Shown one piece after another: positions 34,898 to 59,864 of a stretch of 64,000 nucleotides of DNA. Position numbers and translations under genes: made by a program. Source of the stretch: a virus; IMG/VR virus record IMGVR_UViG_3300031603_000003, positions 1 to 64,000 of that record; one strand, 5' to 3'. The notes under the pieces were generated by a model. That model was not told where the DNA came from. It ran no database searches and worked only from the letters and a program-made list of their open reading frames with translations. The first letter of the stretch is position 1. Every line of letters starts with the position of its first letter.

Positions 34898-34898
34898 A

Positions 34899-35327: not shown

Positions 35328-36121
35328 TATTGATTCCTATTATTCAACTTATCAAGAGCCACGGTTATAGTTCCGAATATGGTTGCAGCGATGATGCCCA
35401 TGTTAATAAACTTAATCAAATCTGGCATCTTAGCTTTACTCGCGGGCCATGTAACAATTGTCTCGGGTAGCATATGGTTCATACTGTTCTCAAACACAAT
35501 TGATTCTTTTCGAATGCTGTCTCCGGTATCGAATATATCAACTCCGAGCATGCTAATGTCACCACCATCTACAATAAGCCCACTGGCATCAGTACCTAGG
35601 TACAAGCTGTCTTTAGCAAAACTAATTCCAACATCAGGAGTACCTACCCTGTCTCTTATTGTTATGTCATTGGAGCTGGTGTCCATATCGGTTGTAGGAC
35701 GATCCTTTATGAGCCTGGATGGACGTGCTTTGTGATCGAAACTCGCCATGGCTTCGTTCACATAACCATTGTCAATATGGAAACGTATGAAATCTTTATC
35801 CACATATGACTCTTTCTCTTCGCCGTCAGTAGGCACGGCTACTTCTTTACGTCCGCCATCGGTGAGGTACTCTTCTAAGCGTACACGACGATCTACTGGT
35901 GCATCAACATCTACTAAAATCTCCGGTACACCTAACACTACATATTCACGAAACTTATCTACCATGTACCCTGGAGCTTTGATTATATACAGGTCACCGT
36001 CGGATGTCTTGTCCGATTCCCCACGCATCCGTACGCATAACCACAAGATATCTGTGTCTTTACTTACTTGTACGGTACTAGCATTTATAACCCTGGCATT
36101 CTTGTATATGTACTTGCTCAT
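35327..36121 (-). CDS. Putative baseplate spike/central protein
   Basis: ATG 36121 overlaps the hub stop (ATGA); between hub and W-like genes; beta-strand run then hydrophobic C-terminus. Confidence 0.45.
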   Translation of the reverse strand: MSKYIYKNARVINASTVQVSKDTDILWLCVRMRGESDKTSDGDLYIIKAPGYMVDKFREYVVLGVPEILVDVDAPVDRRVRLEEYLTDGGRKEVAVPTDGEEKESYVDKDFIRFHIDNGYVNEAMASFDHKARPSRLIKDRPTTDMDTSSNDITIRDRVGTPDVGISFAKDSLYLGTDASGLIVDGGDISMLGVDIFDTGDSIRKESIVFENSMNHMLPETIVTWPASKAKMPDLIKFINMGIIAATIFGTITVALDKLNNRNQ

Positions 36122-39100
36122 AGTCCTATTTCTCCGTTCATAAGGCCCCATTGTGTAACAATACCATCCCAATAATTAGCATCAATGATATCACTTATAG
36201 CTATGGTGGATGCATTCCTATTGTATTGTATGCCTTCTAACCCTGCACTGTATGCTTTACCATTGTACTGCAGTAACGACATGATGATCGGTGCATTACC
36301 TAGTTGCATGTTAGCGGCATTAATAAACTGTTTCATTTCCATCGTCTTATATTTAATACCACCTGCTGCTATCGTAGTACCTACTATGACGAACATACTG
36401 GTAAATGCTGTTAGGAAAGACACTGCTCGTTTACCTAACTCTGATGCAATACCCTTTTCAACTAACCACTTGAAGCTAGTCTTAACGGCGTACTTAGCAC
36501 CTGCTAATTCTCCACCAACTTTAAGCACAGTCCATGCGGTGCCTACTTTTCTAGTAAGACCGTTGAGTGTTGCGTTCAAGCCCATCAGCTCTGTATCAAT
36601 GGCTGCTGCGGTGTTGCGCATAGAAGTAACTAAGTTGGGCTTGATAGTTGTTATGAATCCACCTGATGAACTCATGGAGTGGATAACTTCTTCCACTTCT
36701 ATTACACCGCTCATTTGTGATACGGCATCCGAGATGTGAATGTAATGCCAAGGGCGTATGGTAGCATCGCCTCTAAGTACCAGACTGCCCTGGTACATAG
36801 GTTTGATTTGATTCATCAATATCTGATCAGCTAGCATTTTAGCCTGAGGTTGCGCGTGTTTCCACCCGGCCGTGGCGTCTACGAAGTCCTCGCCTAATGT
36901 GTTAAGTCCTGTAAAATCATAGAAGATACTTGTATCACAGTTCTTCTGAAAGGATACGTACTCCCGGATATAATTAGCATCCAACTCGTTGGAGATAGAT
37001 GATATTACCTTGTTCTCCTTATCCCATTCGTGTGGAGCTGAAACACCTGAGTCTTTTACGCTAGTTGGGTAATACACTGATACTTTATTTGACAGTAGAT
37101 CCTCTGTGACTGTTATCTCATTAGATATGATGTGCGAGTCACTACTGGCGAAGTGATGTTCCACGATTGGTTGGTAACTTTCGGATCCAGTTTGTCCATC
37201 ATCATCCAGGAGTTGGATCAAATCTTCAAGATGTTGAGATTTAGTACCAGTTACTTGATAATTATTTGATTTAATATTAGCTAGGAACTGTGGCATATCT
37301 GCACGAAGGGCTATTGCCCATTCAGCTTTGACGGCGGTGAATATAACTAGACGGCGTGCGCGGTTACCAGCAAGAAATCTATCTGTAAGTGTAACTGGGC
37401 CGCTAAGTGTTTCATCCAATGCAGAGTAGAACTGAGGTATTATATTACCCTTGATATCTCCCATGTTCCAACATAACAACTGCGTAAATACTGACACTGG
37501 GTGTGTCTTAGAAGTGAATGATTCCTCTTCCATTATCTTGCTTGCGTACTTCAGGGCGAACTGTGCTAAGTGCGGTAACCCTGCATTACTTAATCGTTCA
37601 GCGGCTTGCTTTAATGGTGGACTATAATAATCATTGAAGAGGTTATCGAAGCGGCTCTTTACTGGGTTAAATTTAGAAGCCCACAGTGCGGCGTTACCTA
37701 ACTTACGCGCGGCATCTTGCATATCCTGTTCTAAGTTATTTAAGCCAGTCAATGGGTCAAGCTCCCAATCTTCTTGGTTACTATTAGTTAATTCTTCTTC
37801 CGTTTGTAGTATGCGCTGTCTGATAGCGGTGGCGAACTCATCACCCTTACCTGTAATGTGGTAGGGATCATCACTAGCTTTGTATTGTCCATCACGTGGG
37901 CCAAAGTATAGCGTAGCTCGTGGCGCTGTGCCTCCAAATAAGTAAGCACCTTCATTGTAAGGTAATGGTCTAACGATGTAGTCACCAAGATACAGTGCTT
38001 GTTCCCACAATGCATCCCATGTTGTTTGATTATTAATATGCCAGTAGAACGAGTCTTTATCGTCGAAACGATTAAAGAAGGGAACCATGTTTACAAACCC
38101 ATAGTATTGTGGTCTCTTGTTGTTAACATAAATGTTATCGTACAAGGAGTTGCCAAAGTTTAGCAGCATAGCATATTGGTTCGTACCATCTATGAGTGAA
38201 TCCACGAAGTCTTTCGTACCTGCACCTACATCCCCATCGTATAGTCCTAGTACATCTTGGGAGGCAGCAGAACCACCTACTACTTTCTTCTTCACTTTAT
38301 CTAATAATCCCGAATCAACATCACTTACACCTGTACCAGAGAGCCCTGCTATACGGCCGAGCGTGTACAAGTGTTTAGTTAAATCATTTGAAGCTGCGAT
38401 AAACTCTTCCGACTTTCCGTGGTGAATAGACCAACGTCCAAAGTGTTTTAAGCCAGATGTCTCACTTAAGGTAGTAAGTACGGCTTCACCTATATGTGAC
38501 TCCATACTGCCGGAGGTTATACTACGGCTCATTTCTGATAATAGTTCTACGCCGAAGCTTTGAATCTTTATCTCCAATATAGGACCTGGTATAACTTCAG
38601 TAACGGCACCGTACATTACAACCGGCAGGTTACGGTAGTCAGGCCCATAACCAAGGCGTACCATCACGGTGGTACCGGGTTGGATACGGAAACGTTCAAG
38701 GTTCTTAGGATCATCGGTGTCACGAAATAACTGAGAGATACCTGGTGAAGTTAACTTACCAGTGACATTCGACAGGCGTATTATAGCTGTGGAGCTAGCA
38801 GAGTGCTTAGAGTCGATAACATCGATACTTTGTATACCATCGTACGTGTAGAAGTCATCGAATAAACCCCAGTCCGTGGAGTCTTCTTCGATCAAGAACA
38901 TCTTAAACGCAGGGAATGCTTGAATAAAGTGATTATCCCAGTTATTATGTACCTGACTAGCGAGCTTCTTATCCAAACTTACATTCAGGAGTTCGGCGTC
39001 AATATCTGTGTACCCAAAACCTGCTAGTGCGGTATCTATGCTACGTGTATCACCTGCACGAACTATAACCTCGCCAATATCATTGATCATCTTGCCAAGT

Positions 39101-42100
39101 ACCGTAGTTACGTGGGTTTTATCTTTAAAGCTACGGTTATTCAATATCTTATCTACCGCTGAGCGTACACCCTCGGAGTTTGGATTTCCCATGTTATTTA
39201 TTGCTGGGAATAATACTTTTAGTCCGGGCATATCGTTCCCTAGGGTAACACCTTCTACTAACACCTTACCTCTGTTGAGTACGGTGACATCGTTTTCGAC
39301 TTCACCTTCTACTTGTGTGGCTTGGTTGAGTAATGCTGCTAAGAAGAAATACTGCAATAGATGTACAGCTAGAAAGTATCTTAACATTTGTTCCTTCTGG
39401 AACTGTAGGTATTCACCTGACCTATCGGCTAATAGTTTAGCCATGTTCTCGTCTTCTTTCATTTCCTTGAACATATCTAACGTAGATATGTTGACTAACA
39501 TAGCAGGATTACCAGTGCTGACTCCTTTACGATCAACAGCACCATTGCGTAATGCTTCATAAAATGCACTATCTTCATACTTAGCAAGTCCGGAGGTGGC
39601 TTTACCTAATTCCGCACGATACATATCTTTAACTACTTCAGCAGCACCGGCTAAGCTGTCTAAGTCTTCGTTGTTGATTAGGTTACTCATGTTTAATGCG
39701 AGTTCTAACCGACTGTGATCATTAAATATCTTGGCATCCAGCAATGCAGGGGGTATCCTAGTAGCTGCGAAATACCACGCTGGGTGTAATATCTTATGAA
39801 AGTCCTGCGGCTGTGGGTCTACTTCTTTGCCATCATCCTCGTGTACACTAGCCATTAGGTCTTCTGGGAAGCTGAAGTCTGTGTAATTATTACGTACGAG
39901 CTTACTATTATTCTCTATCCATTTAGCATAGTAATTAGGTAAGTACCCGCGCCACCCGGTGAAGCCTTTCTTAGCTAAGTTCTTCATAGCTCTGTTGAAG
40001 TCAGCGCGTACGAACAATATACGCATGAACTCTCGACTATGTTCTTGCAGAGAGTACGCTGCTGCTATGGAAATACCATGTACATTGGAGTCCGTCAAGG
40101 AGATGGATGTTGGGATATCACTCTTCTGGAACACATTTGGTAGCAGTGTACCGAGGAACAGAGACGCTGCTTGATAGACGTACTGCATGTACTGATACGT
40201 ACTACGTTCTATAAGTTGTGTAAGATTAGTAGCATTAAGCGTATCACTATCTCCTAGGTCACTAACTACAGCTTTACGCCAGGCATATATTTGGTCTCTG
40301 GTGGGGGTAACTATATCATTTAACAACCCGGATGCAAATATAGCATTAGCACTTAAGTCTGGGGATACAGCTAGGAGTGTATCAAAGTCTACTGAGTACG
40401 CGAGGTCTTCCCTGAAGTACTTATTTATCATAAGTTGGAAGTCACTCTTCAGGTAATCGCGATCAACAAATATACCCGGTTTAGCTTTAGGCGCTAGGGT
40501 ACGATTTGGATCTATCTTTAGCTTAGCCATTATGAGCTTCGCGGTATACTTATCGAATACGAGATTCGTTGGGAAGAAGTCCGGAGCTACCTTCTTCACA
40601 TATTTAATCGAGGCACCGCCCACTGTACGTAGCTTCTCTTGCTGGTCGATGGTATTAGGATTGTGAATCATATCCAGTTCTACTGCGTACCATCCAGTTG
40701 TTCCTGGTAGGGTCTTAATCACTACGTTACGTACGGTAAACTCTGTAGCACCGATAGCCTGTAACATTGGGTCATTGAACTCAACACGATCAGTGCCTAG
40801 GCTAATCATCGTAGCGTACGCGGCCTGCATAGCGACACCTGTTTGTGTTAATCTGATATCATTTAATCTTTCGATGAAATTGAAATCATTAGTATGGAGT
40901 GCCATGCTAACATTGAATTGCCCCATACCCATGTGTTGGTATGTTGGGGTGTTGTACTGCGTTATATCTATAGGTACTAACTTGTTAGTGTACGAGACAC
41001 TAACAGATTGAATAACTGTCTTATCTGTAGTTGGAGCCATGTCCGATGTGGAGCTAGCGAATACATAAGTCTTGGATTTAAGTTCGAGTTTCCCTACTTC
41101 ACTATCGGCGGTCTTAGTGAACCTGGTTTCTAGTGAGTTTATAAGGTTACTTAGTATACCTAGGCTACCGTCGCTGGTATCTGTTGGTAATTCAGCACCT
41201 AGCATGATAGACAAATCTTTCATAGTACTTGTCTGCGGGGCGATAGTATGCGCTAGTGGGTTGTTAATCCAAACTGTTTGAAGGTTATCGAACATGTCGG
41301 TGGCTCCCTGTAATTCTCCACGTATGGATGAATCGGGGAACACTTCTTTGGCAGTAGCCTTGTACAGGTTATTAGCTTCGGTTACGAGACGACGAAGCCC
41401 TGTGATAGTGCTAGCGGCGGCTTCGAATATGTCCAGTGGGATATACTGGATGCCGGGCTTGGCCTCTAACCCTTTACGTAAGTCACTGCTGGGAGAGAAT
41501 TGCTGAAGGAGTTTTAAGTTATCCAACATAGCGTCAAGGTCTAAACGTGCGCTCTTGATAAAGTTCAAAACACGCGTGGCTGGGGTATCCAGATTAGTAA
41601 TCTGGTTGTATATCATTGTAACACCGCCAGCGCCGTCTGGATTGTACGTGTCCCACCTTGAGTTCTTGCTGACCATGATAGGGTCTTCAAACTCTAAGAG
41701 TTGTGAACGATAGAATCGTATGAACTCCGGAGATTGACCTAGATCATCAGTAGTGTACAGCTGTACGCCTGCAGGTTCTTTGAGAGTTATAAGTTCTCCA
41801 GTCTGTGTAGCGAAGATGCCAGACTTAGCACTTACAGGACTATACGCACGAGATCTGTGCAACACATCATAAATCTTATTGTTACTGATCATCTCCTGAC
41901 GTCGCGGATTGGAGGTAGCCTCGTACCCTCGCATTTCTCCATAGGGAAAGAAGTTGAAGAAACGGATCGTAAGGTACAGTTGTATTGAGTCCGGGTAACC
42001 GGGCACGGTATGAAACGATATACTATCAATAACTATAGGGATTGGGAAGATAGCAGGTACTACCTCATCTTTGTTAAACTCGGCAGATATAGCTCTATCG

Positions 42101-43371
42101 ATAAGTAGCTTACTGATTATCTTACTCTTGACCTGGGTAAAGGGTGCACGTTTAGCCATGGCTACTAAAGGACGTAGTTGTTCGTTGATAGCAGTCTTGC
42201 CGTTGATGTATAACGTAATGTTTATAGAAGGGCGTTGCGTGCTAACCGGTACAATAGGGTTACCATCCGTACGCATGCTATCAAACCCATAAGTTTGTCC
42301 AGTAGCATTATACCTTATAGCAGTAGGTGGTACGACGAATTCAAGATCACCTATACGGAATACATCTTCATCGTCTGCTATTTGGCTCTTAACTAAGCCG
42401 GGAGACGCGGCGTGCATACGATCTAATTTCTTATTGTACTTGAAGACGGTAGTTTGACCACGTGATACTTGTGGGGATGGCGAATCAGTAAGATCAGTAC
42501 CTTCAGGTTCACGCATTATACGGTTTATCGCTTCTGGGTCGTTAATCTGGTTAAGCGCATTCTTCATGAATGTTCTGCCAGGATTAGGTGAGTCGAAGAA
42601 ACCAACAGATGCGTTTAGAGCGTCGATGCGCTTTATTACATACCGATAAAATTCATTAACATCAATTACCCAGTCTGACTTATCTTCTGGTTGTATGTCG
42701 GTGTACACTGCTTTAGTACCGTCTACGACTTTACCTAAATGCCCATCAATACCGCGTTGTAATGTGTACCCCATGCCGTGATTGTAAGTAGCAACTTCGT
42801 TCAGGTACCACTGTACACCATTACGTCCATCTATAGTAATATTCTTCCACTTATTATATATGTCGGTATGCGCATTGTTAAAGTCTTCGACTTCATATTT
42901 ATGTGGTGTACCTTTTAACTCTTTAAACGTACACAGGACATCGAACAGTTCATCGTCCATTCTGGCTGCTAACTCGTGCAGGATATTTCCCAGTATTATA
43001 CGTCTACTGTCGTACTCACCGTCAATATTCATATTACCGATGACACGGTATTCCTTAGCCCATATAGCAGCCACTGACCACAGGAGCCACATTAGCTCGT
43101 CCATGTCGGCCGGGAGTGCTGTGTTTGGATTCACGGCAATACGCTCATAGGTATCAACTACTAGAGGACCTACTGTTAGGTTAATACCTAAACCTTTTAA
43201 TGCTGTTTGGAAGTTCTCTGTCTCTCTTTGTGCCATAAGTATAGCGTACTGGGGGTTCATCTGGTATCGACCTACTTGTCCGGCTCTATTCTCGTTACTA
43301 GTAAGTCTTTTACCGGTCTCAATAAAGGCCGCGGTCTTAATTACGTCTTCTGGTCTTATGTATATAGGCAT
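36118..43371 (-). CDS. Giant baseplate-hub protein (gp27/VgrG-like core) with N-terminal lysozyme-like motif and tube-like domains
   Basis: 'AAFIETG..GQVGRYQMNP'; hub motifs 'STAIIRLSN..IQPGTTVMVRLGYG..MYGAVTEV' and 'YQGSLVLRGDATIRP..GVIEVEEVIHSMS..GFITTI'; C-terminal hydrophobic helix. Confidence 0.72.
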   Translation of the reverse strand: MPIYIRPEDVIKTAAFIETGKRLTSNENRAGQVGRYQMNPQYAILMAQRETENFQTALKGLGINLTVGPLVVDTYERIAVNPNTALPADMDELMWLLWSVAAIWAKEYRVIGNMNIDGEYDSRRIILGNILHELAARMDDELFDVLCTFKELKGTPHKYEVEDFNNAHTDIYNKWKNITIDGRNGVQWYLNEVATYNHGMGYTLQRGIDGHLGKVVDGTKAVYTDIQPEDKSDWVIDVNEFYRYVIKRIDALNASVGFFDSPNPGRTFMKNALNQINDPEAINRIMREPEGTDLTDSPSPQVSRGQTTVFKYNKKLDRMHAASPGLVKSQIADDEDVFRIGDLEFVVPPTAIRYNATGQTYGFDSMRTDGNPIVPVSTQRPSINITLYINGKTAINEQLRPLVAMAKRAPFTQVKSKIISKLLIDRAISAEFNKDEVVPAIFPIPIVIDSISFHTVPGYPDSIQLYLTIRFFNFFPYGEMRGYEATSNPRRQEMISNNKIYDVLHRSRAYSPVSAKSGIFATQTGELITLKEPAGVQLYTTDDLGQSPEFIRFYRSQLLEFEDPIMVSKNSRWDTYNPDGAGGVTMIYNQITNLDTPATRVLNFIKSARLDLDAMLDNLKLLQQFSPSSDLRKGLEAKPGIQYIPLDIFEAAASTITGLRRLVTEANNLYKATAKEVFPDSSIRGELQGATDMFDNLQTVWINNPLAHTIAPQTSTMKDLSIMLGAELPTDTSDGSLGILSNLINSLETRFTKTADSEVGKLELKSKTYVFASSTSDMAPTTDKTVIQSVSVSYTNKLVPIDITQYNTPTYQHMGMGQFNVSMALHTNDFNFIERLNDIRLTQTGVAMQAAYATMISLGTDRVEFNDPMLQAIGATEFTVRNVVIKTLPGTTGWYAVELDMIHNPNTIDQQEKLRTVGGASIKYVKKVAPDFFPTNLVFDKYTAKLIMAKLKIDPNRTLAPKAKPGIFVDRDYLKSDFQLMINKYFREDLAYSVDFDTLLAVSPDLSANAIFASGLLNDIVTPTRDQIYAWRKAVVSDLGDSDTLNATNLTQLIERSTYQYMQYVYQAASLFLGTLLPNVFQKSDIPTSISLTDSNVHGISIAAAYSLQEHSREFMRILFVRADFNRAMKNLAKKGFTGWRGYLPNYYAKWIENNSKLVRNNYTDFSFPEDLMASVHEDDGKEVDPQPQDFHKILHPAWYFAATRIPPALLDAKIFNDHSRLELALNMSNLINNEDLDSLAGAAEVVKDMYRAELGKATSGLAKYEDSAFYEALRNGAVDRKGVSTGNPAMLVNISTLDMFKEMKEDENMAKLLADRSGEYLQFQKEQMLRYFLAVHLLQYFFLAALLNQATQVEGEVENDVTVLNRGKVLVEGVTLGNDMPGLKVLFPAINNMGNPNSEGVRSAVDKILNNRSFKDKTHVTTVLGKMINDIGEVIVRAGDTRSIDTALAGFGYTDIDAELLNVSLDKKLASQVHNNWDNHFIQAFPAFKMFLIEEDSTDWGLFDDFYTYDGIQSIDVIDSKHSASSTAIIRLSNVTGKLTSPGISQLFRDTDDPKNLERFRIQPGTTVMVRLGYGPDYRNLPVVMYGAVTEVIPGPILEIKIQSFGVELLSEMSRSITSGSMESHIGEAVLTTLSETSGLKHFGRWSIHHGKSEEFIAASNDLTKHLYTLGRIAGLSGTGVSDVDSGLLDKVKKKVVGGSAASQDVLGLYDGDVGAGTKDFVDSLIDGTNQYAMLLNFGNSLYDNIYVNNKRPQYYGFVNMVPFFNRFDDKDSFYWHINNQTTWDALWEQALYLGDYIVRPLPYNEGAYLFGGTAPRATLYFGPRDGQYKASDDPYHITGKGDEFATAIRQRILQTEEELTNSNQEDWELDPLTGLNNLEQDMQDAARKLGNAALWASKFNPVKSRFDNLFNDYYSPPLKQAAERLSNAGLPHLAQFALKYASKIMEEESFTSKTHPVSVFTQLLCWNMGDIKGNIIPQFYSALDETLSGPVTLTDRFLAGNRARRLVIFTAVKAEWAIALRADMPQFLANIKSNNYQVTGTKSQHLEDLIQLLDDDGQTGSESYQPIVEHHFASSDSHIISNEITVTEDLLSNKVSVYYPTSVKDSGVSAPHEWDKENKVISSISNELDANYIREYVSFQKNCDTSIFYDFTGLNTLGEDFVDATAGWKHAQPQAKMLADQILMNQIKPMYQGSLVLRGDATIRPWHYIHISDAVSQMSGVIEVEEVIHSMSSSGGFITTIKPNLVTSMRNTAAAIDTELMGLNATLNGLTRKVGTAWTVLKVGGELAGAKYAVKTSFKWLVEKGIASELGKRAVSFLTAFTSMFVIVGTTIAAGGIKYKTMEMKQFINAANMQLGNAPIIMSLLQYNGKAYSAGLEGIQYNRNASTIAISDIIDANYWDGIVTQWGLMNGEIGL

Positions 43372-43538
43372 TAGCTCATCTGTGCTAGTTTAATTATGTT
43401 AAGTAAATCAACATCGTTGATATATATGTCTGCGTTTACGCCATAACGCTCAAATAACATTAAACGAATACTGTCAATCTGTTCTTGTACGTCAAGCTCA
43501 TATGGCACATCAGTTAACTTTATCATTATCGTAATCAT
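43371..43538 (-). CDS. Small hypothetical protein (55 aa, not in ORF track)
   Basis: MITIMIKLTDVPYELDVQEQIDSIRLMLFERYGVNADIYINDVDLLNIIKLAQMS*; ATGA overlap upstream and TAATG overlap downstream. Confidence 0.75.
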   Translation of the reverse strand: MITIMIKLTDVPYELDVQEQIDSIRLMLFERYGVNADIYINDVDLLNIIKLAQMS

Positions 43539-46500
43539 CTTACTAAAGAGCCAGCTCTTCGGAGGTAATCTGATGAGCTAATAGCTGTGTGTCTGCGCTT
43601 CTTATTATTATATTCGTAATGTGGACGTTCAGGTACACGCATACCTTTAACCAATTGTGGTGCATTGTCTGGTGAGTTCTTCAGTTTGTCCATCAACTTA
43701 TCCTTCAATGTGGCACTCTGCTCTTTTAGGTGCACGCTCTTGCGATTACGGTACCCTTTGGTAACCTCCGACATATTTGGTGTGTCATACTGTTCGCCGC
43801 CTTTTCCGATTGTCTCCCCTACGATCTGGTTCCCAGTGTTGGGATCGAAGAATAAAGCCAGTCCGGCAACAGTTAATACTTTGCGTCCATGGTTACGTAG
43901 GAATGAGTTCTGATCTAAGGCAAAAACTGATTTAGTATATTGCTTAATCTTCTCTGTAAAGATACGTCTAGAGTTGAATTCCTCTGCCAGGGCACCACCA
44001 ACGTGCCCTTCCAATTCTAATAGTGTCTGGAATACGCTAGCACTACTACGTGCAAGACCCATACGCTTGAGCTCTGGCGCTATCATCTGGGACATCTCAG
44101 TACGTAGTACCTGATCTCTGGAGATTTGACTTTCAAGGGAACTTACGGTGATACCTTTAGTTTTATTAGCTAGATCATCCGCCGCCCCTACTGCTTGCAT
44201 TAAATCTCCTAGTTTAGCGGCATATGTATCGTCTCCTCTGCTGTTAGCATCTGTTTGTAATTGGACAAGTGTACTTCCAAGCTTATGTACAGCTATACTA
44301 GCAGTATGCCAGGACTCTAATAGTTTACCGGCTCGTAGTTGTGCTTTCTCCAGGGTAGCATCATTCATGGATGCTAGATCTTGCCTATTAGCGTGGTACG
44401 TTAATGTTAGTTTACGATCTTCACCCATACGTTTAGTAAAGTAATCTATGGATGCGTCTAGAGATGTTCTATCTTCTCCCCAGGTAACTGTATTAAGATG
44501 TCCCATCATCTTGATTAGAGATGTAACAGGGTTGCTACTAGTCTTTTCTATACCCGTACGTTGCCCTAGTTCAGCTACAAATAGGTTCATTACGTGCATG
44601 TTGCTATAACCACCCATCAAATCACTAGGAGAATGCAAGTAATCGAGAGCTTCAAGTACTGAGTTAGATGTTATACCTTTGGCGTGTAATCCTACCTCTT
44701 CCATCATTCTATTAAACATACCGCTAGCAGCTTCACGCTGTGGGCCTTCATTTAATAAGCTACCAAGTTGACGCATGACGGAGTTCGGGCCGTACGCGGC
44801 GGCATATAGTTTCTTGTGGAACCCACCAATAACTTGCGTGAATGACTTCTGTGTCATGTACGCCAGCTGCGTGTCAACCCTGCTATCCATCTCTAGTTGT
44901 TTCTTGAAGAAACTAGCAGACAGCGCTTCGGATGGATCGACAAACAAGTGTGGATTAGTACCCATAGCGGCTTTATCGAGCTTGTAGAGCTGTCTGGTTC
45001 CTCCGGGAGAACTTTCAGTGGCGAAGTTTGCTTCATCGAATATATCGGCTAGGTATGGTGTACCGCCATCTCGTTCAATCTGTATCTTCTGCCAGTCGAT
45101 CAACATATTGGTATGGTTTTCGTGACTCTGTTGGTACATTGTACGCTTGATGCCAATCTTACCTTCGCGGTCTCTCCATCCACCTATGTTGATGATAGCG
45201 GCAGTATCACCATCCTGATCAGCTCGTAGGAACTTCATCGCTAGTGGGTCTAGGAACACAGATGAGCGGGTGGAGAATCCTGCACCACCGTCATACACGG
45301 CACCGACTTGTTCTGGAAATATGTAAGTACCTCCGGCCAGCACCATTCCTTGGATGTGGGATGGGTTACGATCACGTAATTGTTTACCACTGATCTCAGC
45401 AGTAAAGAATTGGTAAGCTTCCTGATAACTAAGATCTCCAGTCTTAACTGCTTCTTTTAGCTGTCTTGCGCCTGCTTTTCCGAATACAAAACTCTCGTTT
45501 ACACCAAGTCCACGTGCACGTACTACGCCAGTTACTGGGTCTATCGGGCTACCGCCTCCAGTTATTCTGTTTAGTATAGTAGATAACTGAAGCTCGCTTT
45601 GTTTGCTAGCGACAAACTCTTGACCGAGACCCTTCTTTAACCAACCGGGAAGCTTAATCTTGGAGTCTTCTAGTACGCCTAGTGATAACTGTTCTTGCAT
45701 AGATATGAGTGTTGGGAGGATACCCATGCTATTCATGATCTTACCGTGTGACATGCTTACGGTACTAGCTGTAGATCTGAATTTAGATTGCTCGAATAAG
45801 TGACCTAGTATGCCTAAAGATGCACGATCTACTATCTCGGAGGTGAGTTCACGGCGTCTGTTGTACTCACGCATGAAGTCTTCTTCAGCTGTTTCTTTAA
45901 TACCAACATGGAAGGCAGTCTGAAAGGCACTAATAGCTTCTGCACCTTCGAGGAACTTAGAACTAGCACCTGCCATAATAGCTAACCCATCTTTGTCGTG
46001 TGGCCTGAGTATACCTGTTAAGGCTGGGAAGATGACTTCATCTATAATGTTGGGCCCGCGCTTGTCGGCGTTGCTTTCTATAAATTCACGGAATGCTTTG
46101 AATTTAGCCTTGTCCATACTACCTGCGGACTGTAACTCTCCATGTATAGCGAGATCTTTGACTGCACCCATGTGTTTTATGGAGAGTGTCATGTTCTCAG
46201 TGCCGATACGCTTCTTGATAGCCTTACGGAACGCATCACGCTCTTCATCGTTGAACTTAGACATGTCGATCTTATCCAACATTTCATCTACACTGTCTAG
46301 TTTGAAACCTCTGTACGCTGGATCATTCTTCTCTAGTGCTCCGAACAGATTATCGCTGTCGAAGAACGCGGCACGTACTTGACTGATACGTGATTCAGCC
46401 ATACCAGCAAGTTGTATATATTCTCCGGTTTGTGTATCCTGAAACTCTTGCCCAAACTGTGCCAGCATGCCGGCTGCTTTCATCTCCGGCGTAGCCCCGG

Positions 46501-51793: not shown

Positions 51794-54700
51794 GTGTTCT
51801 CCTTGATATCTCGCGAGCAGAGTCTCTCTGGATTTCTACTTCTAGCTTGATACCTTCAGCCCCTGCTGATGGTGTGTCCGTAACTTCGACGGTAAATGTC
51901 ATGCCAGACATAGTTAATTGCTGAGTGATATATCCTTGTATCTCTGGTATATCTATATCTACTGAGCTTTGCCCTGAAGAAGGTGCATGTATATCTAATG
52001 CCCTGGACTTTAACAGACTTTGTTCAGCGGCTTTAACCTGGTCACGCCAACCTAACCCAAAGTCATGAGAATCAAGGCCGGCTGATTCCACCGTCTTCAT
52101 TTCAAAGAAGTCCATGTTAGCGGACGGTTGCATTATTGGATCAGTAGCTAATGGGCGTTGATGTGTTTCGAAGTATTGAGTAGCATCGAAGGCACTGTCT
52201 CTGCTCTCGTTCCAGGTCTTGGATAGTACGCGCGCCATGCTGGCATCAACCTTGCGTAAGATCTGTTGTCGTCTTTCCGGATCACGTTCGTTCATGAACG
52301 CTGTAAAGAATGGTCTATCCCAGTACGGGATGGCGGAGAAGGTAACTCCTAGATCTAATTGTGCACGATATGATGTGTCACCGGCGGTATCCTGACCACC
52401 CCACGGTGAGTGGTGCCCGTAGTTAGGTGTGCCCTGCATATTGTACGCTTGATACGCGTAGCGGTTAGTTTGATTCATCTCTTCCGGGTTCTGGGCGAAC
52501 GCACCAAAGCCAACAGCAGTCTGGCTCATTTGTCTCAAGTACCTACTATCTTTCGTGAGGTCATACATCCGTGAAGCTTTGTCGTACTTAACGACATCGA
52601 AGTATTCAGAGTATTCACTGAGTTCTTCGAAGTGGTCAGGTTTGTATTCTGTACCGGTGATAGTTCTAGCGAGTCCGTGCGCTGTACCGTATGCAGCACC
52701 TACGGCTGCTCCAACAGTGGCACCGAATGGTCCACCGACTAGTGCTCCACCAGCTCCCCAACTCAGAGCTCCCTGTACGGGCCCGGTAGCTGATAGCGCT
52801 CCGCGTGTCCATGGCTTGATGAATGATTCAACTGGGTTTCCCCATCCTTGAAAGCCTTTACCTAATACCACTTCGTTATCGTACATTTCCTCTGGTGAAT
52901 ACACACCGAAAAACTTCGTATGTAACGGAGTACGATAACTCATGAGCTTTTCCCAAACAGCACCAACGGCCCGTTCGGTTAATGAATATTCAGCTGCAGC
53001 TCTGATGTTCTCATTCAAGTTGTACGAGGTGTATTCAGCACTGGGTGCAATCCAATCTGTACCTTGGAATCGTTTGTCATACATTTCATACTTGTTAACT
53101 ACACCTTTAGCATGTCTCTTTAACATGTCTAATCTATTGACCTGGCTATCAGTGAGCATACCGCGTTCTGCTTGTTCTTCGACGATTTGTCCTATTTCAC
53201 GAAACTCTTTACTGAATGGGGATGTATTAAGTAATACTTCGAAGCGATCAGTGTAACTATAACCACCGGCAGCTTGACCGTATCCTTCTTCTAGATAACC
53301 GGCCGCCATACCGCGCGCTTGGTTAAGCGTGTTGATAGAGTCGTCCCACATGTCCGCGTTGTATCGGGTGAAAAACGACTTAACCTGTGAAGGATCATCT
53401 CGATTGACGTAGATTATCTTACCTGACTGTGCACCCATGATGTGCATATAAGCATTCAACTGCACAACATTTGCTCGTTTTGGTGCACGGAGTTTACTAA
53501 AACCTGCGGCGCTGATAGATTTGATTTCACCAGGTGAGCCGACTTTGTCCACTGTAGGAAAAACTAAATCAACATAGGATGATAATCTGTTCTCTGGGTC
53601 AGTGATTAATGCTTCTGTCTTGATTGCGCGGTTCTCTGCTTTCAATGCGGTCTGCACCATACGATGAATAGCAGTACCACCCTCCATAATCTCAATGGCA
53701 TCCTCATCGAATTGGTTTAATCCTAAGAACCCCATAGCCTGATCAAATGCGCTGGAACCTAATCTCGAGATACCGGACGGGAAATCAATGGTTGTTTCGT
53801 GTGTAGCTTCGTAGCCAGATCCTGGAAGAATATATTCCCCTAAAGGACGTTTGGTATTGTGTGTACAAACACAGCCCACACAGAAACTATCATCGGTATC
53901 TACTTCGAATCCGTATACGAGACCATCGTAACGTTCTCTCTTGATCCATTCGATACCTAGACTCATATATTGTTTGTTACCGATTACGCGCAATATAGTG
54001 GAAGGTAATTCATTACCTGTAATCTGTCCTCTATCGTATACACGTTCGCCTGTTAATATATGGTGTAACGTAACTGCTGATTTACCATATACTTGCACAG
54101 TGTTGCCTTCGAGAACTCCATGAATATGAAGTTGTGCTAAGTGACTCCAGATCTGATATGCTAAGTTTCGTGTAGGCATTTCAAACGTAAGTTCCATGCC
54201 TCTCATGTTAGTAGTCAGAAACTGTCTAGTGAACTGCAGTAATGCAGGAGTACCCACAGCGTACAATTCATCTGGTATACCGTACGTCTGCATCTGTTCT
54301 AGTAACTCAGCTACAGCGCCGGAGCGGAAGCTATTATCTCTGTTTACTGATACTCCAAAGTATGTATCTACTAGGTGTACAATCTCTCCATGATCTATCG
54401 GGCAGTTGATTAACTTTATATGTTCATCTTCATACTTACCGTACGCCAGTATGATACCTAGTGTAAACGCATACCCACCTGTGACTACACCAGAACGTCT
54501 AGTAGACATTTCTGTGTGCACAGCTGGCGCTGTTGTACGTAAGTCACGCAGTGGGTATCTTACTCTATGTTTCTTGGTAAGATTCTCCGCTTTAACATAA
54601 TGTCCATTGTCACTTACTAGGAATGGATGTTCACTAGTAACACGGATTAATGTATCAGTATGTTTTAACTTAATAACATATACGCGTTCCTTGACTGGTC

Positions 54701-57700
54701 TAGGTAGAATAGCGGATACCGGAACGTAACGACCACGTGTGGTACGTACTAGATCTCCCTCCTCTATTTCGTCCGCGCGCTTGAGGCCGCCGAGTACTTC
54801 AATTTCAGTGTCATCGGTAACACAATAAGGGTCACCAGTACGGAATTCCTCAGGTAACCATGTTGGCATCTGATTAGGTATAGGGTTAGCCTGGTTGAAA
54901 GATGTACGTGGTCTAGGATAGAGTCTACGAATACCTTCATTAAGAAATAGTAAATCTCCAAGGTTAGCGTCCCATAATTTACGGGCCGTGGAGTCTATGG
55001 CGCTAGAGCTGGTTAAATATGTTTCATCTACAAATGGCTCGTCACCGCCCCAGAATGCTTGAGAGCTTAGGAACCCAGTTAACCCTGGTGCCTCGATTAA
55101 ACCACGGTACACTGATTCAGATATAATAGCACGTGGGCTAGTAGCTCTGGCAATATATTCATCAGCTACTACTCCCATACCTGGTATAATTCGCGGGGCA
55201 TCAGTGTCGAATCCCCCAAGTACACCTTTGTACTGTGAGAACCCTGCTAACGCTTTACCCTCATGTGCACCTTTGCCTTTACCTGTGACGCCGGCGCCAA
55301 GTTCGGAGCGGGCATCCTCTAGGTGCATTAATGAGTTTGTGCCCATTGGATGTAGGAAGTTATACAATCTACCTGCAGTGGCTCCTAATATAGGACCAAC
55401 CAGTGGTACTTCACTGAACGGTACATCAGGTTCCATATACGGTCTATCGAAATAATGTTTACGTGTTAGGTACTGTGGATCAATCAGATCGCCAATTGAG
55501 AAATCAATTATACTTCTGTCTTTGAATATGAACTCTTCCCATGGTGAACCGTACTGTACCGGTGATGATGATACTTGTGCTTTCATACGGGCATACCAGT
55601 TTGGAAGAACGGCCATGGTGCGTCCACCTTCTATGGGCGTACTTCCCAAAGTCCAACCGGCACCCTTACGTACGGGAACTAATTCTTTACCTGAATAGAT
55701 ATCACGTAATTCATCGTATGACTTAGTCATATCCGTGACGAATGGAGCTGCTAGCGGAATGATAGATAGAAATCCGAGAGGACCTTCAGCCATTGTGGGT
55801 TGCAACCACCGGTTAATTACAGCTCCTGCTAACGCACCGGGTGCGCCTCCAATGGCGAATCCTATAGCTGCGCCTGGTAAGGTGGATGTAGACTTAGGCA
55901 TCAACCCTTCTAAGTACTTGGCACCCGCTGTTACACCTGTAATGTCATAAACTTTTGCAGCTAACAATCTCAAGCGTACGGCTTGATCGGCGACGCCTAC
56001 GGTAATACCCTCATCCAGGGCAGTACCTTCGAACACTGGTAATGTATCAGTAACAGTGTCAGCAAAGTCGTACGTGAGTTCTATTCCAGCCATTAACGCA
56101 GCACGGCGACCCATCAAACCAAGCCAAGAGCTGTGACCTTTGTCGCCTCTTTGTGGTAATATATCTTTATATTTACCACGGTCCCACCCAAGTCCAACCC
56201 AGTCCAGGACTGTACCGAATGTTTCATAAGTGTATGTGGATCCAAACTTAAACCAACCACCTATGGAGTTGTCCACTGCTACGAACTGTGTCTCGGATGT
56301 GAGTTTCTTAATCTCCGATAGCTGGGCTGCACGACCCACGTGCTGATCATTGAACTGTTTAAGTGGATGGATTTGTTTTAGATAGGCAGTCGCTTCGTCG
56401 CTGTGTTGTGCTTCTTGGACTATTTCGATTAGCTTGTTTACTGTAGGACGGTACTCAGACTGTGCCTCGGTATTGGTCTTCATACCCATTAACGGTCCAA
56501 GGTCCTCTGCCTGCAGAAGTTTCTTGTACGTTTTGGAATGTTTAACCATTTGAACTAGGCTTAGTTCTTTATCACTAAAGCGTGAACCGGTTCTGGCTTT
56601 AACTGCAGCTATAGCTCTATCTACAGCTGTAGACCCATCAGGAGTAGAGAAAGAGAGCTCGAAGTTAGTACTTACATCTGCTATGTACCTCAACATCTTT
56701 TGATGTGGACTCTCGCCTCTACCAGACCCTTGAAGGAAACTTTCAGGACTATCTAATAAATGTTCTTTGATGTATGCACTATTGGATACACTAATACTAG
56801 CCTTGCTGACGGGGCTATCACCAGTCTGGGCCATTAAATACTTTACTACCTTACGAGACTTTACTACATCATCTTGTATCTCAGCGAGGAAATCTTCCGT
56901 AGAGAGTTTAGTACGGTTACCGCGTATAGCGCTGCGTATGTCTACGTTTGGTATGTTATCTAATAGTAATGATCCATGTCCGGTAGTTAACAGTGTTGAA
57001 TATATAGAATCACTACCAAGGAATACCTTGTCGTACGCTTCTTTCTCAATACCAGCGAACATAGTACCAGCACCTGCTAACTCAACCATTAGTTGCTTGC
57101 CCATGAGCGGTGATATCTTAGCCTTACTATCGAATTTTGCTATGTTACTCTTTATCTTATCTAGCATGTAGTGGGGCTTAGTAGGATCATTTGGCATTAG
57201 TGCGGAAGATACCATCTCGAAGATAGAAGCGTTAGCACCTTGGCTAGCTCCGAGGTCGAACTTCTGATGCAACCATTGTCGGAAAGGACTTGTTTTGTCC
57301 ATTCTGTCTGGATCTCTTGGTGGAAGGAACCCTGCAGATTGGTAAACTATCTTTCCACCCTTCTTTGACAGTGCAGATGCGAAAGGCCGTATGTTGTTAG
57401 CGAGCTCAACGGTATTCTGCATAGCTAGATCTGGACCAAACAGTGTGTAAGAACGCTTACCTGGAGTTCGAATTAGTACGCCAGGTAGGTTACCTTTACC
57501 TCCAGCTTGTCCACTAAACTTAAATGCTTGGCGTGGGCTGTCCGCGTTCATCAAGTACGCACCAGACTTTAAGCCCTCGTCCGTTACGTTTGCACCAGTC
57601 ATACCAGATATGGGTAATGTATTATGTATAGGTATGAACATTGGTAGATCTTGACCTAGCAATCCGCGTATTGGGTATAATGTATCAAGAGCAGGACCTA

Positions 57701-59201
57701 GGCGTGTCGTCTTACCTAGACTACTTATAGCTTTATCTGCTATAGCTCCTGGGCTGTAGTTACGAATATCAACTATTTTACCCTTACCGCCGAACCTACC
57801 TGGTAGGTTCTTGGCATAATAGATATGTCTATCCGCTAATAACTCTTTAAGTTTATGACCATCCTTGGCGGCCGTGTTAAGGTGTGGAAAGATTCGTGAT
57901 AACTTCGCCTGCTGTTCTAGTCCTACTGTAGGCTGTTGCCTTATATCGTGGAAAAAGCTAGCTGTCGTCATTTGTACACGTTGTTGTGTACTGTAATCAT
58001 AGTGTTTTAATCTTGCACGTTCGAAGCCTAAGTACTTACTAACTAATCGTTCTGTAAATGTTGATGTCTTCTTAGCATCGAACAGGTTAGTCTCAATGTG
58101 ATTAAGATAATCATCGGACATTCCAGGAGTCGCGAATGACTTAATTAGTTGTTGTTGATCGTCCTCGCGGCGTGACGCTATAGGTCCCATCCACCGTTTG
58201 AAATGACTAACACTGAAGTCGTCCATGGCGGACTTACGAGATCGGATGACCTTAGCTTGTGTCCTTACCTGCTCTTTGTACAGAGCACTTATGTCCTTCG
58301 CACCCTCCTTCTTACCAACAAACTTTAGGTGGGAAGTTTTAGTCCTATCCATGTGTACGCGGTAAGACTCACGTTCCTTAAGTGTTGTTTTGAGCGCGGC
58401 TTTGTGGACCATCGCTTTGTCAACGTACGGACGAATCTTGTTCTTATCTGATTTCCACCACTCTAATGCTTTGTTTACAGTAGCGACTACGGATTTCGTC
58501 ATACCATCTGGGTTAAGTTTGTTGTTTAAAAGCTTTGTTCCTATTATCTGGGCTCCGCCCATCATACCACGAGACATTGCATCATACCCGATGAACTCAG
58601 GAACGTACGTAGCTATGTCCCAGGCTCGTCCTGGTAGATTATACCATGCGATATCTCTCTTTTGTCGCTGAGCCGCAGTGTCGGTTGGGTGTCCGATGAT
58701 ACGGTCTACTCCATAGAAGAACGGGAATGCTACAACTGAATCCTTGGCGTACTTACCGGCCATACCCAATGCAATATCTGGGCGTCCCATGCCTGCTGTT
58801 TTGAATGTATCCCAACGTTCAACTATGTTCTTACCGTCTGTACGTCTTAAGTATTCTTTGTAGTGTGTATTAGTAACAGCTTTGTGTAATGCCCCGGCGG
58901 CTTTACCTCCAGGTAGCTTACCTCTGCTGAGGAAAACAGATAAACTATCATCGGCTTGGTGTGCCGCGTTGGCGGCTGCACGTACAGTCTTGGATACATT
59001 ACGACTTACGGCCGCTGATGCTATTAGTTTCTTCTTACCAACATTGAATGCGCCTTGAGCGCCCATGAATAGTACACCCCAAGTCGCGAACGACTTGACC
59101 ATACCAGTTAGCCCACTAGTTATAGCGGACGATACACCGGAGTCTTCGTAACCCTCCAGGGCTAGGGCAATATCTCTTGGATCAGCGGCCATTACGTCCA
59201 T
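51786..59201 (-). CDS. Tape-measure-like giant protein with intein and Cas4-like PD-(D/E)XK nuclease domain
   Basis: Directly after the tail chaperones; helical, Gly-zipper segments 'GAAIGFAIGGAPGALAG' and 'GAGGALVGGPFGATVGAAVG'; nuclease motifs 'GTAIH..E..YVDLV..EIKS..QLNAYM..IIYVNRD'; start could be 59192. Confidence 0.75.
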   Translation of the reverse strand: MDVMAADPRDIALALEGYEDSGVSSAITSGLTGMVKSFATWGVLFMGAQGAFNVGKKKLIASAAVSRNVSKTVRAAANAAHQADDSLSVFLSRGKLPGGKAAGALHKAVTNTHYKEYLRRTDGKNIVERWDTFKTAGMGRPDIALGMAGKYAKDSVVAFPFFYGVDRIIGHPTDTAAQRQKRDIAWYNLPGRAWDIATYVPEFIGYDAMSRGMMGGAQIIGTKLLNNKLNPDGMTKSVVATVNKALEWWKSDKNKIRPYVDKAMVHKAALKTTLKERESYRVHMDRTKTSHLKFVGKKEGAKDISALYKEQVRTQAKVIRSRKSAMDDFSVSHFKRWMGPIASRREDDQQQLIKSFATPGMSDDYLNHIETNLFDAKKTSTFTERLVSKYLGFERARLKHYDYSTQQRVQMTTASFFHDIRQQPTVGLEQQAKLSRIFPHLNTAAKDGHKLKELLADRHIYYAKNLPGRFGGKGKIVDIRNYSPGAIADKAISSLGKTTRLGPALDTLYPIRGLLGQDLPMFIPIHNTLPISGMTGANVTDEGLKSGAYLMNADSPRQAFKFSGQAGGKGNLPGVLIRTPGKRSYTLFGPDLAMQNTVELANNIRPFASALSKKGGKIVYQSAGFLPPRDPDRMDKTSPFRQWLHQKFDLGASQGANASIFEMVSSALMPNDPTKPHYMLDKIKSNIAKFDSKAKISPLMGKQLMVELAGAGTMFAGIEKEAYDKVFLGSDSIYSTLLTTGHGSLLLDNIPNVDIRSAIRGNRTKLSTEDFLAEIQDDVVKSRKVVKYLMAQTGDSPVSKASISVSNSAYIKEHLLDSPESFLQGSGRGESPHQKMLRYIADVSTNFELSFSTPDGSTAVDRAIAAVKARTGSRFSDKELSLVQMVKHSKTYKKLLQAEDLGPLMGMKTNTEAQSEYRPTVNKLIEIVQEAQHSDEATAYLKQIHPLKQFNDQHVGRAAQLSEIKKLTSETQFVAVDNSIGGWFKFGSTYTYETFGTVLDWVGLGWDRGKYKDILPQRGDKGHSSWLGLMGRRAALMAGIELTYDFADTVTDTLPVFEGTALDEGITVGVADQAVRLRLLAAKVYDITGVTAGAKYLEGLMPKSTSTLPGAAIGFAIGGAPGALAGAVINRWLQPTMAEGPLGFLSIIPLAAPFVTDMTKSYDELRDIYSGKELVPVRKGAGWTLGSTPIEGGRTMAVLPNWYARMKAQVSSSPVQYGSPWEEFIFKDRSIIDFSIGDLIDPQYLTRKHYFDRPYMEPDVPFSEVPLVGPILGATAGRLYNFLHPMGTNSLMHLEDARSELGAGVTGKGKGAHEGKALAGFSQYKGVLGGFDTDAPRIIPGMGVVADEYIARATSPRAIISESVYRGLIEAPGLTGFLSSQAFWGGDEPFVDETYLTSSSAIDSTARKLWDANLGDLLFLNEGIRRLYPRPRTSFNQANPIPNQMPTWLPEEFRTGDPYCVTDDTEIEVLGGLKRADEIEEGDLVRTTRGRYVPVSAILPRPVKERVYVIKLKHTDTLIRVTSEHPFLVSDNGHYVKAENLTKKHRVRYPLRDLRTTAPAVHTEMSTRRSGVVTGGYAFTLGIILAYGKYEDEHIKLINCPIDHGEIVHLVDTYFGVSVNRDNSFRSGAVAELLEQMQTYGIPDELYAVGTPALLQFTRQFLTTNMRGMELTFEMPTRNLAYQIWSHLAQLHIHGVLEGNTVQVYGKSAVTLHHILTGERVYDRGQITGNELPSTILRVIGNKQYMSLGIEWIKRERYDGLVYGFEVDTDDSFCVGCVCTHNTKRPLGEYILPGSGYEATHETTIDFPSGISRLGSSAFDQAMGFLGLNQFDEDAIEIMEGGTAIHRMVQTALKAENRAIKTEALITDPENRLSSYVDLVFPTVDKVGSPGEIKSISAAGFSKLRAPKRANVVQLNAYMHIMGAQSGKIIYVNRDDPSQVKSFFTRYNADMWDDSINTLNQARGMAAGYLEEGYGQAAGGYSYTDRFEVLLNTSPFSKEFREIGQIVEEQAERGMLTDSQVNRLDMLKRHAKGVVNKYEMYDKRFQGTDWIAPSAEYTSYNLNENIRAAAEYSLTERAVGAVWEKLMSYRTPLHTKFFGVYSPEEMYDNEVVLGKGFQGWGNPVESFIKPWTRGALSATGPVQGALSWGAGGALVGGPFGATVGAAVGAAYGTAHGLARTITGTEYKPDHFEELSEYSEYFDVVKYDKASRMYDLTKDSRYLRQMSQTAVGFGAFAQNPEEMNQTNRYAYQAYNMQGTPNYGHHSPWGGQDTAGDTSYRAQLDLGVTFSAIPYWDRPFFTAFMNERDPERRQQILRKVDASMARVLSKTWNESRDSAFDATQYFETHQRPLATDPIMQPSANMDFFEMKTVESAGLDSHDFGLGWRDQVKAAEQSLLKSRALDIHAPSSGQSSVDIDIPEIQGYITQQLTMSGMTFTVEVTDTPSAGAEGIKLEVEIQRDSAREISRRTRG
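53856..54824 (-). mobile_element. Intein (323 aa) with degenerate LAGLIDADG region
   Basis: Block A 'CVTDDTEI', block B 'VTSEHPF', block F 'VYGFEV', block G 'CTHN' followed by +1 Thr; 'LGIILAYG' is a decayed block C. Confidence 0.92.
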
Positions 59202-59796: not shown

Positions 59797-59800
59797 GATA

Positions 59801-59840
59801 TAAAAAGAGGCGAGAATCGACGTATGCCGAGCCTCGCCTC
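59801..59840 (-). terminator. Intrinsic terminator-like hairpin between the two chaperone genes
   Basis: - strand GAGGCGAG-GC-TCGGC-ATAC-GTCGA-TT-CTCGCCTC-TTTTT. Confidence 0.75.
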
Positions 59841-59864
59841 AATACTCCTACTTGGACGTTTGGT

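Follow-up and report, generated by a model that had tools for sequence, protein, structure and literature searches.

A three-giant tail module of an uncultured phage and the exonuclease and RNA-polymerase-like motifs conserved in its middle protein

The closest described counterpart of the locus presented here is the tail module of the Bacillus thuringiensis jumbo myovirus 0305phi8-36. Its three consecutive giant genes encode gp145 (1930 amino acids, aa), gp146 (2537 aa), and gp147 (1903 aa), and the record of this phage lists each of these products as a virion protein on the basis of mass spectrometry. A description of this module dates from 2007 (Thomas et al., 2007; Hardies et al., 2007, PMC2147016), when gp147 was placed in the hub family of T4 gp27 and P2 gpD, and gp146 was called the tape measure from its correlation with tail length (Hardies et al., 2007, PMC2147016). 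A second precedent is gp96 of the Thermus siphovirus P23-45, a tape measure with an N-terminal flat, clamp-less two-barrel virion RNA polymerase (RNAP), by which the pre-early genes are transcribed, probably at the pore of the tape measure (Chaban et al., 2024, PMC10770324). Here we describe a module of the same order in an uncultured virus. The window that was analyzed is the first 64 kb of the 79.5-kb IMG/VR virus record IMGVR_UViG_3300031603_000003, for which CheckV gives a completeness of 42%, corresponding to a full genome of about 190 kb. It contains three giant genes, named g1, g2, and g3, and a small open reading frame (ORF) of 55 codons between g2 and g3. The middle giant g2 carries invariant DEDDh exonuclease and DxDGD motifs, and, judged from its sequence, we lean slightly towards reading it as a virion-delivered two-barrel RNAP of the tail module that is fused to an exonuclease.

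The three-giant module and its relatives

The four ORFs g1, g2, the 55-aa ORF, and g3 together encode 7,695 aa in 23.1 kb, and neighboring ORFs overlap by 8 nucleotides (nt) (g1/g2), 4 nt (g2/55-aa ORF), and 1 nt (55-aa ORF/g3). Therefore, the four ORFs are translationally coupled, in agreement with an earlier note on this DNA, which had described three overlapping or coupled ORFs and a 55-aa spacer gene, with about 7,600 aa in 23 kb. They are real genes, since g1 and g3 have homologs at E values between 1e-27 and 1e-54, g2 has nine relatives, and the 55-aa ORF is kept in two related contigs. In detail, phmmer relates g1 to gp145 of 0305phi8-36 (E 2.7e-54) and to gp096 of Bacillus phage WH1 (E 1.9e-38), and g3 to WH1 gp094 (E 1.1e-31) and to gp147 (E 6.1e-27), whereas no similarity of g2 to the middle giants of 0305phi8-36 and WH1 is detectable by phmmer. 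Using tblastn, g3 reaches the hub genes of Bacillus jumbo phages and also the hub of Acinetobacter phage ME3.

The gene order sheath, tube, tube paralog, chaperones, three giants, and baseplate is shared with the Bacillus phages 0305phi8-36, WH1 (giants gp096, gp095, and gp094), and KLEB27-3, and the same arrangement is present in Acinetobacter phage ME3, where the giants are ME3_35, ME3_36, and ME3_37; a module of this type also occurs in Bacillus phage Edson. Furthermore, the order recurs, with g1, g2, the small ORF, and g3 all retained, in both uncultured relatives, two IMG/VR loci designated L004, a complete 198-kb contig (IMGVR_UViG_3300031603_000001), and L006. The earlier note had regarded a lack of this architecture in relatives as fatal to its proposal, and the architecture was found in two uncultured relatives as well as in 0305phi8-36, WH1, KLEB27-3, and ME3.

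Exonuclease and RNA-polymerase-like motifs of the middle giant

The g2 family is very rare. Nine relatives were found at E <= 1e-3 among 1.84 billion representative proteins, and IMG/VR holds three g2 loci. Scans of metagenome and genome contigs added zero further relatives, and nothing was returned for g2 by tblastn against 50,697 phage records, by a word-indexed search of 5.8 billion proteins, by comparison with PDB sequences using either the single protein or a profile, or by comparison of the whole protein and its fragments with Pfam and PHROGs at E values up to 10. Identity within the family alignment is 18-30%, yet the DEDDh and DxDGD residues are invariant. A conservation scan ranks the two termini of g2, together with residues 1062-1108 and 1421-1455, as its most conserved blocks.

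The exonuclease motifs comprise D708 and E710 (FDMEF), D843 (QADIPLM), and H976 and D981 (HLAQFD, a HxAxxD motif), which are invariant in seven family members. This is the motif set of the DnaQ and RNase T exonucleases (ExoI DxE, ExoII D, and ExoIII HxAxxD) in the same order, but the spacings in g2 are longer (135 and 133 residues) and there is no direct profile match. The middle giants of WH1 and KLEB27-3 contain the motifs DxE, GxNxxxxDxPxM, and HxALxD, which are followed by NRYPT, 35 residues, and AD(H/Y)DGD, and all of these are invariant in a six-member Bacillus-type family. When the exonuclease block of the g2 family was aligned to that of the Bacillus-type family with hhalign, collinear matches were obtained at ExoII (P 1.8e-4) and ExoI (P 0.016), and the Bacillus-type block in turn matches E. 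coli DnaQ (P 6.5e-4). Directly, the g2-family block gave no match to E. coli DnaQ in hhalign. The link between the g2 exonuclease and DnaQ is thus transitive, because it exists via the Bacillus-type family only. By order and conservation of its motifs, g2 contains a candidate DEDDh exonuclease domain.

The RNA-polymerase-like segment follows towards the C-terminus. Its DQDGD motif starts at residue 2192, and D2192, D2194, and D2196 are invariant in seven family members; ADFDGD occurs in three members. In a joint MAFFT alignment of 15 sequences from the two families, R2142 and the three aspartates are invariant, and the proline of the upstream motif is nearly so. ME3_36 has REP, 39 residues, and GDHDQDQAAV at the same relative position, and in all three lineages the DxDxD motif is located at 0.76-0.80 of the protein length. 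The segment of g2 also passes the filter [RK]xPx{20,100}DxDxD, which was used by Chaban et al. (2024, PMC10770324). Thus, both motif sets that the earlier note had read from g2 are present and invariant across the family, although no profile of an exonuclease or RNAP matches them.

Weak similarity to cellular RNAP was found in the Bacillus-type giants. PF00623 (RNA_pol_Rpb1_2, the active-site domain of beta') is the sole Pfam family that is matched by more than one of the 15 members; the sub-threshold matches (E 0.0048 and 0.014) are confined to the Bacillus-type family and coincide exactly with NRYPT…DxDGD. In a six-frame search of the complete WH1 and KLEB27-3 genomes, no PF00623 match was obtained outside the middle giant, where the E values were 5.4e-4 and 7e-5. 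Moreover, when the combined core block was compared by hhalign with the 1407-aa E. coli beta' subunit, the single top match was to residues 422-468 (LLNRAPTLH…NADFDGDQMAV) with 28% identity and P 0.016, whereas the control comparison of the same block with E. coli beta gave P 0.44.

The distribution of other polymerases points in the same direction. Among the four cultured relatives, a YonO-like PF05183 protein was found in 0305phi8-36 only (E 1e-20; 209484-211547), and gp146 of this phage (L002 8738-16351), which contains no DxDxD anywhere, is the sole middle giant of a cultured relative without the motif. In the lineage of the window there was no signal for PF05183, and the complete 198-kb relative has no gene matching PF05183, PF00940, or PF00623, and no recognizable T7-like, YonO-like, or beta'-like RNAP. 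It is possible, though we would stop just short of favoring it, that the middle giants constitute a new family of single-chain two-barrel RNAPs, which jumbo phages of the 0305phi8-36-like and Metrivirus-like groups encode in the tail module and deliver with their contractile tails, and which are uniquely fused to a DEDDh domain and have been functionally replaced by a YonO-like enzyme in 0305phi8-36.

A two-barrel enzyme would need a second, beta-like barrel, for which the two internal blocks of highest conservation in g2 are the candidate. Their invariant residues are R1093, K1095, N1105, P1106, K1429, G1431, R1434, and E1436, and by eye only they resemble VLNPLG and GGQRFGEME of E. coli beta. 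A comparison of the g2 family with gp66 of phage phi14:2 by hhalign was null, and the ESM Atlas gave a weak lead only, with a cluster of viral RNA-dependent RNA polymerases at rank 28 and a score of 0.83. AlphaFold2 models were obtained for residues 1330-2480 (nine sequences), with a mean predicted local distance difference test (pLDDT) of 43, and for residues 2010-2350 (15 sequences), with a mean pLDDT of 54.6, in which residues 2024-2137 alone are confident. These residues (window 45383-45724, minus strand; pLDDT 60-88) form a small alpha/beta unit upstream of RxP…DxDGD, without a clear structural match.

The flanking giants, the 55-aa gene, and the genomic setting

The first giant, g1, for which 21 relatives were found in a large protein database, can be regarded as a virion protein and as a tape-measure candidate at least as good as g2, since it is encoded directly after the ORFs in chaperone position, contains glycine-rich hydrophobic segments, and has a weak match to a tape-measure profile (phrog_8462, E 0.0027). 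It contains an intein, which begins with C1460, has the block B motif TSEH, and ends in HN before T1783. Pfam Intein_splicing matches g1 below the cut-off (E 4.5e-5), the insertion is precise, and many of the database relatives of g1 carry intein domains of Pfam (PF14890 and PF14528 among them), several of them LAGLIDADG and Hint domains. The intein interrupts a conserved motif, GDPY|xK..GE..LPGxGYE, which is uninterrupted in the alignment in gp145 and gp096, and the same site is filled in both uncultured relatives. Inteins usually mark catalytic motifs of their host proteins.

About 40 residues downstream of the intein, g1 contains a PD-(D/E)XK nuclease domain with the D…ExK core and QxxxY, which confirms by profile the nuclease that had been proposed for this protein. 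Besides phrog_1706 (E 3.8e-15), it matches phrog_2506 exonuclease (8.5e-7), phrog_1990, and RecE-like and Cas4-domain families. The motifs GTAIH, YVDLV, EIK, and QLNAY are kept in L004, L006, and gp145, and are deleted in WH1 gp096. We classify the domain from these matches as Cas4/RecB-like only and not as Cas4 proper.

The third giant, g3, matches phrog_20474 (E 8.9e-50) and the tail protein family phrog_52. By this homology and by its position before the baseplate wedge genes, g3 is the baseplate hub, gp27-like by the link between gp147 and gp27 that is taken from PMC2147016. The earlier note had also assigned a muramidase to g3, which was not confirmed: residues 1-300 have no SLT or lysozyme match in Pfam at E values up to 10, the hub N-termini of L004 and L006 have none at E values up to 1, and hhalign of the g3 N-terminus with the SLT-like N-terminus of gp147 was null. 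Inspection by eye reveals no more than a conserved E-[ST] and part of a GxYQ motif in the head of g3. From the set of enzyme-like motifs and membrane-like helices ascribed to the giants, what stands is DQDGD and DEDDh in g2, PD-(D/E)XK in g1, and the hydrophobic segments, which are rich in glycine in g1 and g3 and take the form of a helix close to the N-terminus in g2; the muramidase is the part that was not confirmed.

Other hub proteins differ at this end. The N-terminus of WH1 gp094 (L003 18828-19727) is a staphylococcal nuclease (SNase) domain (Pfam E 1.3e-6), and that of 0305phi8-36 gp147 (L002 16383-17282) is SLT-like at a sub-threshold E value of 0.0015. As judged from these profiles, the enzyme heads at the hub N-termini of this phage group appear to be exchangeable. 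Two ORFs of 1105 and 1365 aa (L004 17612-25037) take the place of a single hub gene in the complete 198-kb relative.

The 55-aa ORF has homologs with the same overlapping start and stop in L004 (17446-17616, 47% identical) and L006 (17009-17191, 31% identical), and its product has no family match in Pfam or PHROG. Its conservation indicates a real gene that is coupled to g2 and g3, and the encoded acidic protein is probably accessory. ME3_36 (L014 9495-14306), a protein of 1603 aa annotated as hypothetical in a cultured Gram-negative jumbo phage, has its REP…GDHDQDQAAV segment at residue 1217 and no HxAxxD motif; it is possibly a shorter, exonuclease-less version of the middle giant.

The surroundings of the giants (Table 1) agree with the contractile-tail context assumed in the earlier note, as genes for a sheath and tube-like proteins lie upstream and a Baseplate_J gene lies downstream. 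The position of the tube-like pair is that of the tube and tube-paralog genes of 0305phi8-36. The two small ORFs upstream of g1 correspond to the "tail chaperonin" genes gp143/gp144 of 0305phi8-36 and to gp098/gp097 of WH1, and have no family match in Pfam or PHROG scans. A crAss-like origin was rejected, since the sheath, tube, and Baseplate_J genes indicate a contractile tail. The best explanation of the region is that it encodes the tail interior and the hub of a jumbo myovirus with a genome of about 190 kb, which is related to 0305phi8-36 and Metrivirus.

Table 1. Features of the tail module and its immediate neighbors in the 64-kb window
Feature	Position	Strand	Evidence or remarks
Tail sheath gene, C-terminal part, running off the window	63482-64000	-	phrog_16991 tail sheath, E 1.2e-8
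Two tail-tube-like paralogs	62743-63372 and 62120-62674	-	both match phrog_9206 (E 1e-39, 2e-17); weak Phage_tube_2
Two small ORFs, 127 aa and 204 aa, in tail assembly chaperone position	59182-60248	-	by position only
g1	51786-59201	-	2471 aa
Intein in g1, residues 1460-1782, 323 aa	53856-54824	-	Cys1, block B TSEH, terminal HN then Thr
Cas4/RecB-like PD-(D/E)XK nuclease domain of g1, residues ~1822-1962	53316-53738	-	phrog_1706, E 3.8e-15
g2	43535-51793	-	2752 aa, GTG start; by synteny counterpart of gp146 (0305phi8-36), gp095 (WH1), gp034 (KLEB27-3), and ME3_36
DEDDh (DnaQ-like) exonuclease motif set, g2 residues ~700-990	48824-49696	-	D708, E710, D843, H976, D981
Candidate second, beta-like barrel, g2 residues 1062-1108 and 1421-1455	47429-48610	-	conservation scan; the two most conserved internal blocks
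RNA-polymerase-like catalytic segment, g2 residues 2139-2200	45194-45379	-	RNP, 47 residues, LDPL..ADQDGD
55-aa ORF	43371-43538	-	acidic protein
g3	36118-43371	-	2417 aa
Baseplate genes: 281 aa, 142 aa, and 376-aa Baseplate_J	33767-36172	-	Pfam Baseplate_J, E 9e-21; phrog_6 baseplate wedge, E 2e-34; phrog_2669, weak

Downstream of the baseplate genes the window contains nine large ORFs on the minus strand (13593-33767; 338 to 1220 aa) with zero PHROG matches, which presumably encode fibers or proteins at the periphery of the baseplate, from a sparsely sampled lineage. Positions 3-7487 (plus strand) harbor replication and recombination genes, on the strand opposite to the tail module. They encode a RecD2-like helicase (AAA_19, E 3e-37), a DNA_pol3_delta2 ATPase that resembles clamp loaders, an AAA_5 ATPase with a VWA-domain protein after it, and a protein with a weak PD-(D/E)XK match.

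Possible functions of g2 and comparison with known systems

Several results weigh against a polymerase in g2. All PF00623 matches are below the curated cut-off of Pfam, and no member of the g2 family matches any RNAP or exonuclease profile, nor any PDB sequence. Cross-family searches with hidden Markov models between g2 and the Bacillus-type giants were not significant; the case for their homology is made by synteny and weak collinear profile matches, with P 0.077 for the DxDGD block. The comparison of the candidate second barrel with rpoB by hhalign was not significant either. The complementarity between YonO and DxDxD comes from four cultured genomes only. Both AlphaFold2 models have a pLDDT below 50 at the motifs, and Foldseek and VIA-align found no meaningful match for these low-confidence models; since the models are too poor to judge whether the catalytic segment folds as a double-psi beta-barrel, they do not refute it. 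Moreover, for passage through the tail tube, a polymerase core with over 1000 aa would have to be unfolded, and gp146, the positional counterpart of g2, has been assigned as tape measure (Hardies et al., 2007, PMC2147016).

This assignment leads to the main alternative, a structural one, according to which g2 is a true tape measure or a scaffold of the tail lumen or of ejection, whose acidic motifs bind metal or mediate assembly but do not polymerize. Apart from the tail-length correlation of gp146 (PMC2147016), such a role would agree with the largely helical prediction for the sequence, the conserved hydrophobic helix at the N-terminus, the conserved C-terminal block adjoining the hub gene, the lack of enzyme profile matches, and the fact that gp146 manages without the motifs. 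However, it would have to account for five DEDDh residues and an RxP…DxDGD segment that are invariant, in canonical order and spacing, between lineages of less than 20% identity, and for PF00623 matches whose position in the Bacillus-type giants is exactly that of the motif. Furthermore, it is g1 rather than g2 that directly follows the chaperones, is weakly matched by a tape-measure profile, and contains hydrophobic segments rich in glycine, and structural and enzymatic roles are compatible with each other, as in P23-45 gp96. A purely structural g2 is therefore unlikely in our view, although its probability is by no means negligible.

Two further alternatives accept the enzymes but assign them other tasks, and we consider both of them improbable. 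In one of them, g2 is a two-barrel polymerase but not the early transcriptase, and serves DNA synthesis or repair at the end of the entering genome in a PolD-like manner, priming, or RNA-templated synthesis of the QDE-1 kind. DEDDh domains are typically found together with DNA polymerases, an exonuclease is fused in two lineages, and the two-barrel enzymes include PolD and the dual-activity QDE-1. On the other hand, ME3_36 keeps DxDxD without HxAxxD, which argues that the exonuclease is dispensable, the observed complementarity is with a YonO-like RNAP and not with a DNA polymerase, and the best weak similarity is to the catalytic loop of RNAP beta'. In the other one, to which we likewise give only a small probability, the enzymatic heads (the g1 nuclease, the g2 exonuclease, and the hub head) are effectors that are ejected against host nucleic acids or defenses. 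The variable hub N-terminus, SLT-like in 0305phi8-36 versus a staphylococcal nuclease in WH1, and the loss of the g1 nuclease in WH1 gp096 suggest exchangeable accessories and would fit this idea, which, however, leaves the invariant DxDGD unexplained and has no direct evidence of a target. It is also compatible with a tail-delivered polymerase rather than exclusive of it, and the probabilities that we give to the preferred reading and to its alternatives partly overlap.

If g2 is a virion-delivered RNAP, the module might work as follows. g1 would be a tape-measure-like virion protein that matures by intein splicing and carries the Cas4-like nuclease, and g2 would be a second giant virion protein with a diverged single-chain two-barrel RNAP-like core (RxP…DxDGD) and an N-terminal DEDDh 3'-5' exonuclease; the 55-aa protein would be a conserved accessory protein. 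Upon contraction of the sheath, g1 and g2 as contents of the tail lumen would be driven out by way of the g3 hub and enter the cell envelope, and g2 would then transcribe the first phage genes during entry of the DNA, as has been proposed for the tape-measure-fused RNAP of P23-45. In this scheme, that g2 folds and acts as a polymerase, that it is present in the virion, and that it is ejected are inferences, as is any role of the two nucleases. The processing of DNA ends and a transcription-coupled entry of DNA, which the earlier note had envisaged, would be purely conjectural additions.

A polymerase hidden in a tail giant, if true, would explain how early transcription starts in a lineage without a recognizable RNAP, and it would extend the tape-measure-associated RNAP, which has so far been proven only in P23-45, to contractile tails and widen its reach to hosts that are Gram-positive, Acinetobacter, or uncultured. 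Bringing in a transcription machine via the tail lumen would then be a recurrent strategy and not a peculiarity of one Thermus siphovirus, and g2 would be the first among the two-barrel polymerases to have a dedicated nuclease of the proofreading type. As the motif is present in the cultured relatives WH1, KLEB27-3, and ME3, the idea is directly testable, and it bears on the annotation of gp146 as tape measure in 2007. Apart from this, the locus documents an intein in a predicted virion protein and a Cas4-like nuclease that may be carried in the virion.

Compared with the gp145-gp146-gp147 module of 0305phi8-36, the order of the giants in the window is the same, g1 and g3 are sequence homologs of gp145 and gp147, and gp145 has the same Cas4-like nuclease motifs as g1. 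However, g1 contains an intein whereas gp145 does not, the 55-aa gene between g2 and g3 belongs to the lineage of the window, and the hub heads differ (SLT in 0305phi8-36, SNase in WH1, none recognized in g3). The most relevant difference concerns the middle giant: g2 has both the DEDDh and the DxDxD motifs, whereas gp146, annotated as tape measure, has neither, and 0305phi8-36 has a separate YonO-like polymerase, gp99.

P23-45 gp96 and g2 are both giant proteins of tail modules with a DxDGD motif, both were initially undetectable by sequence similarity, and both pass the filter [RK]xPx{20,100}DxDxD, so that they are likened here by motif and description; the role proposed for both is early transcription by a tail-delivered enzyme. 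In contrast to gp96, g2 belongs to a contractile tail, is a separate giant beside the tape-measure-like g1, has its motif at 80% of its length, is fused to a DEDDh exonuclease, and is known from genes alone. A further group of single-chain two-barrel polymerases comprises gp66 of phi14:2, a crAss-like phage (Drobysheva et al., 2021; PDB 6VR4) and YonO/QDE-1. The likeness of this group to g2 lies in single chains of more than 2000 aa that are encoded among giant virion-protein genes and in the DxDxD triad (DFDID in gp66). Unlike g2 with its contractile tail, gp66 belongs to a podovirus and is cargo stored in the head or muzzle. The term "undescribed system" in the earlier note was therefore too strong for the module as a whole, since the three-giant module has been known since 2007 (PMC2147016) and the principle of a tail-borne RNAP, fused to a tape measure, has been published (PMC10770324). 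What does appear to be undescribed, as judged from the literature searched, is the enzymatic content of the middle giant, namely the combination of exonuclease and DxDGD motifs that is kept in three lineages.

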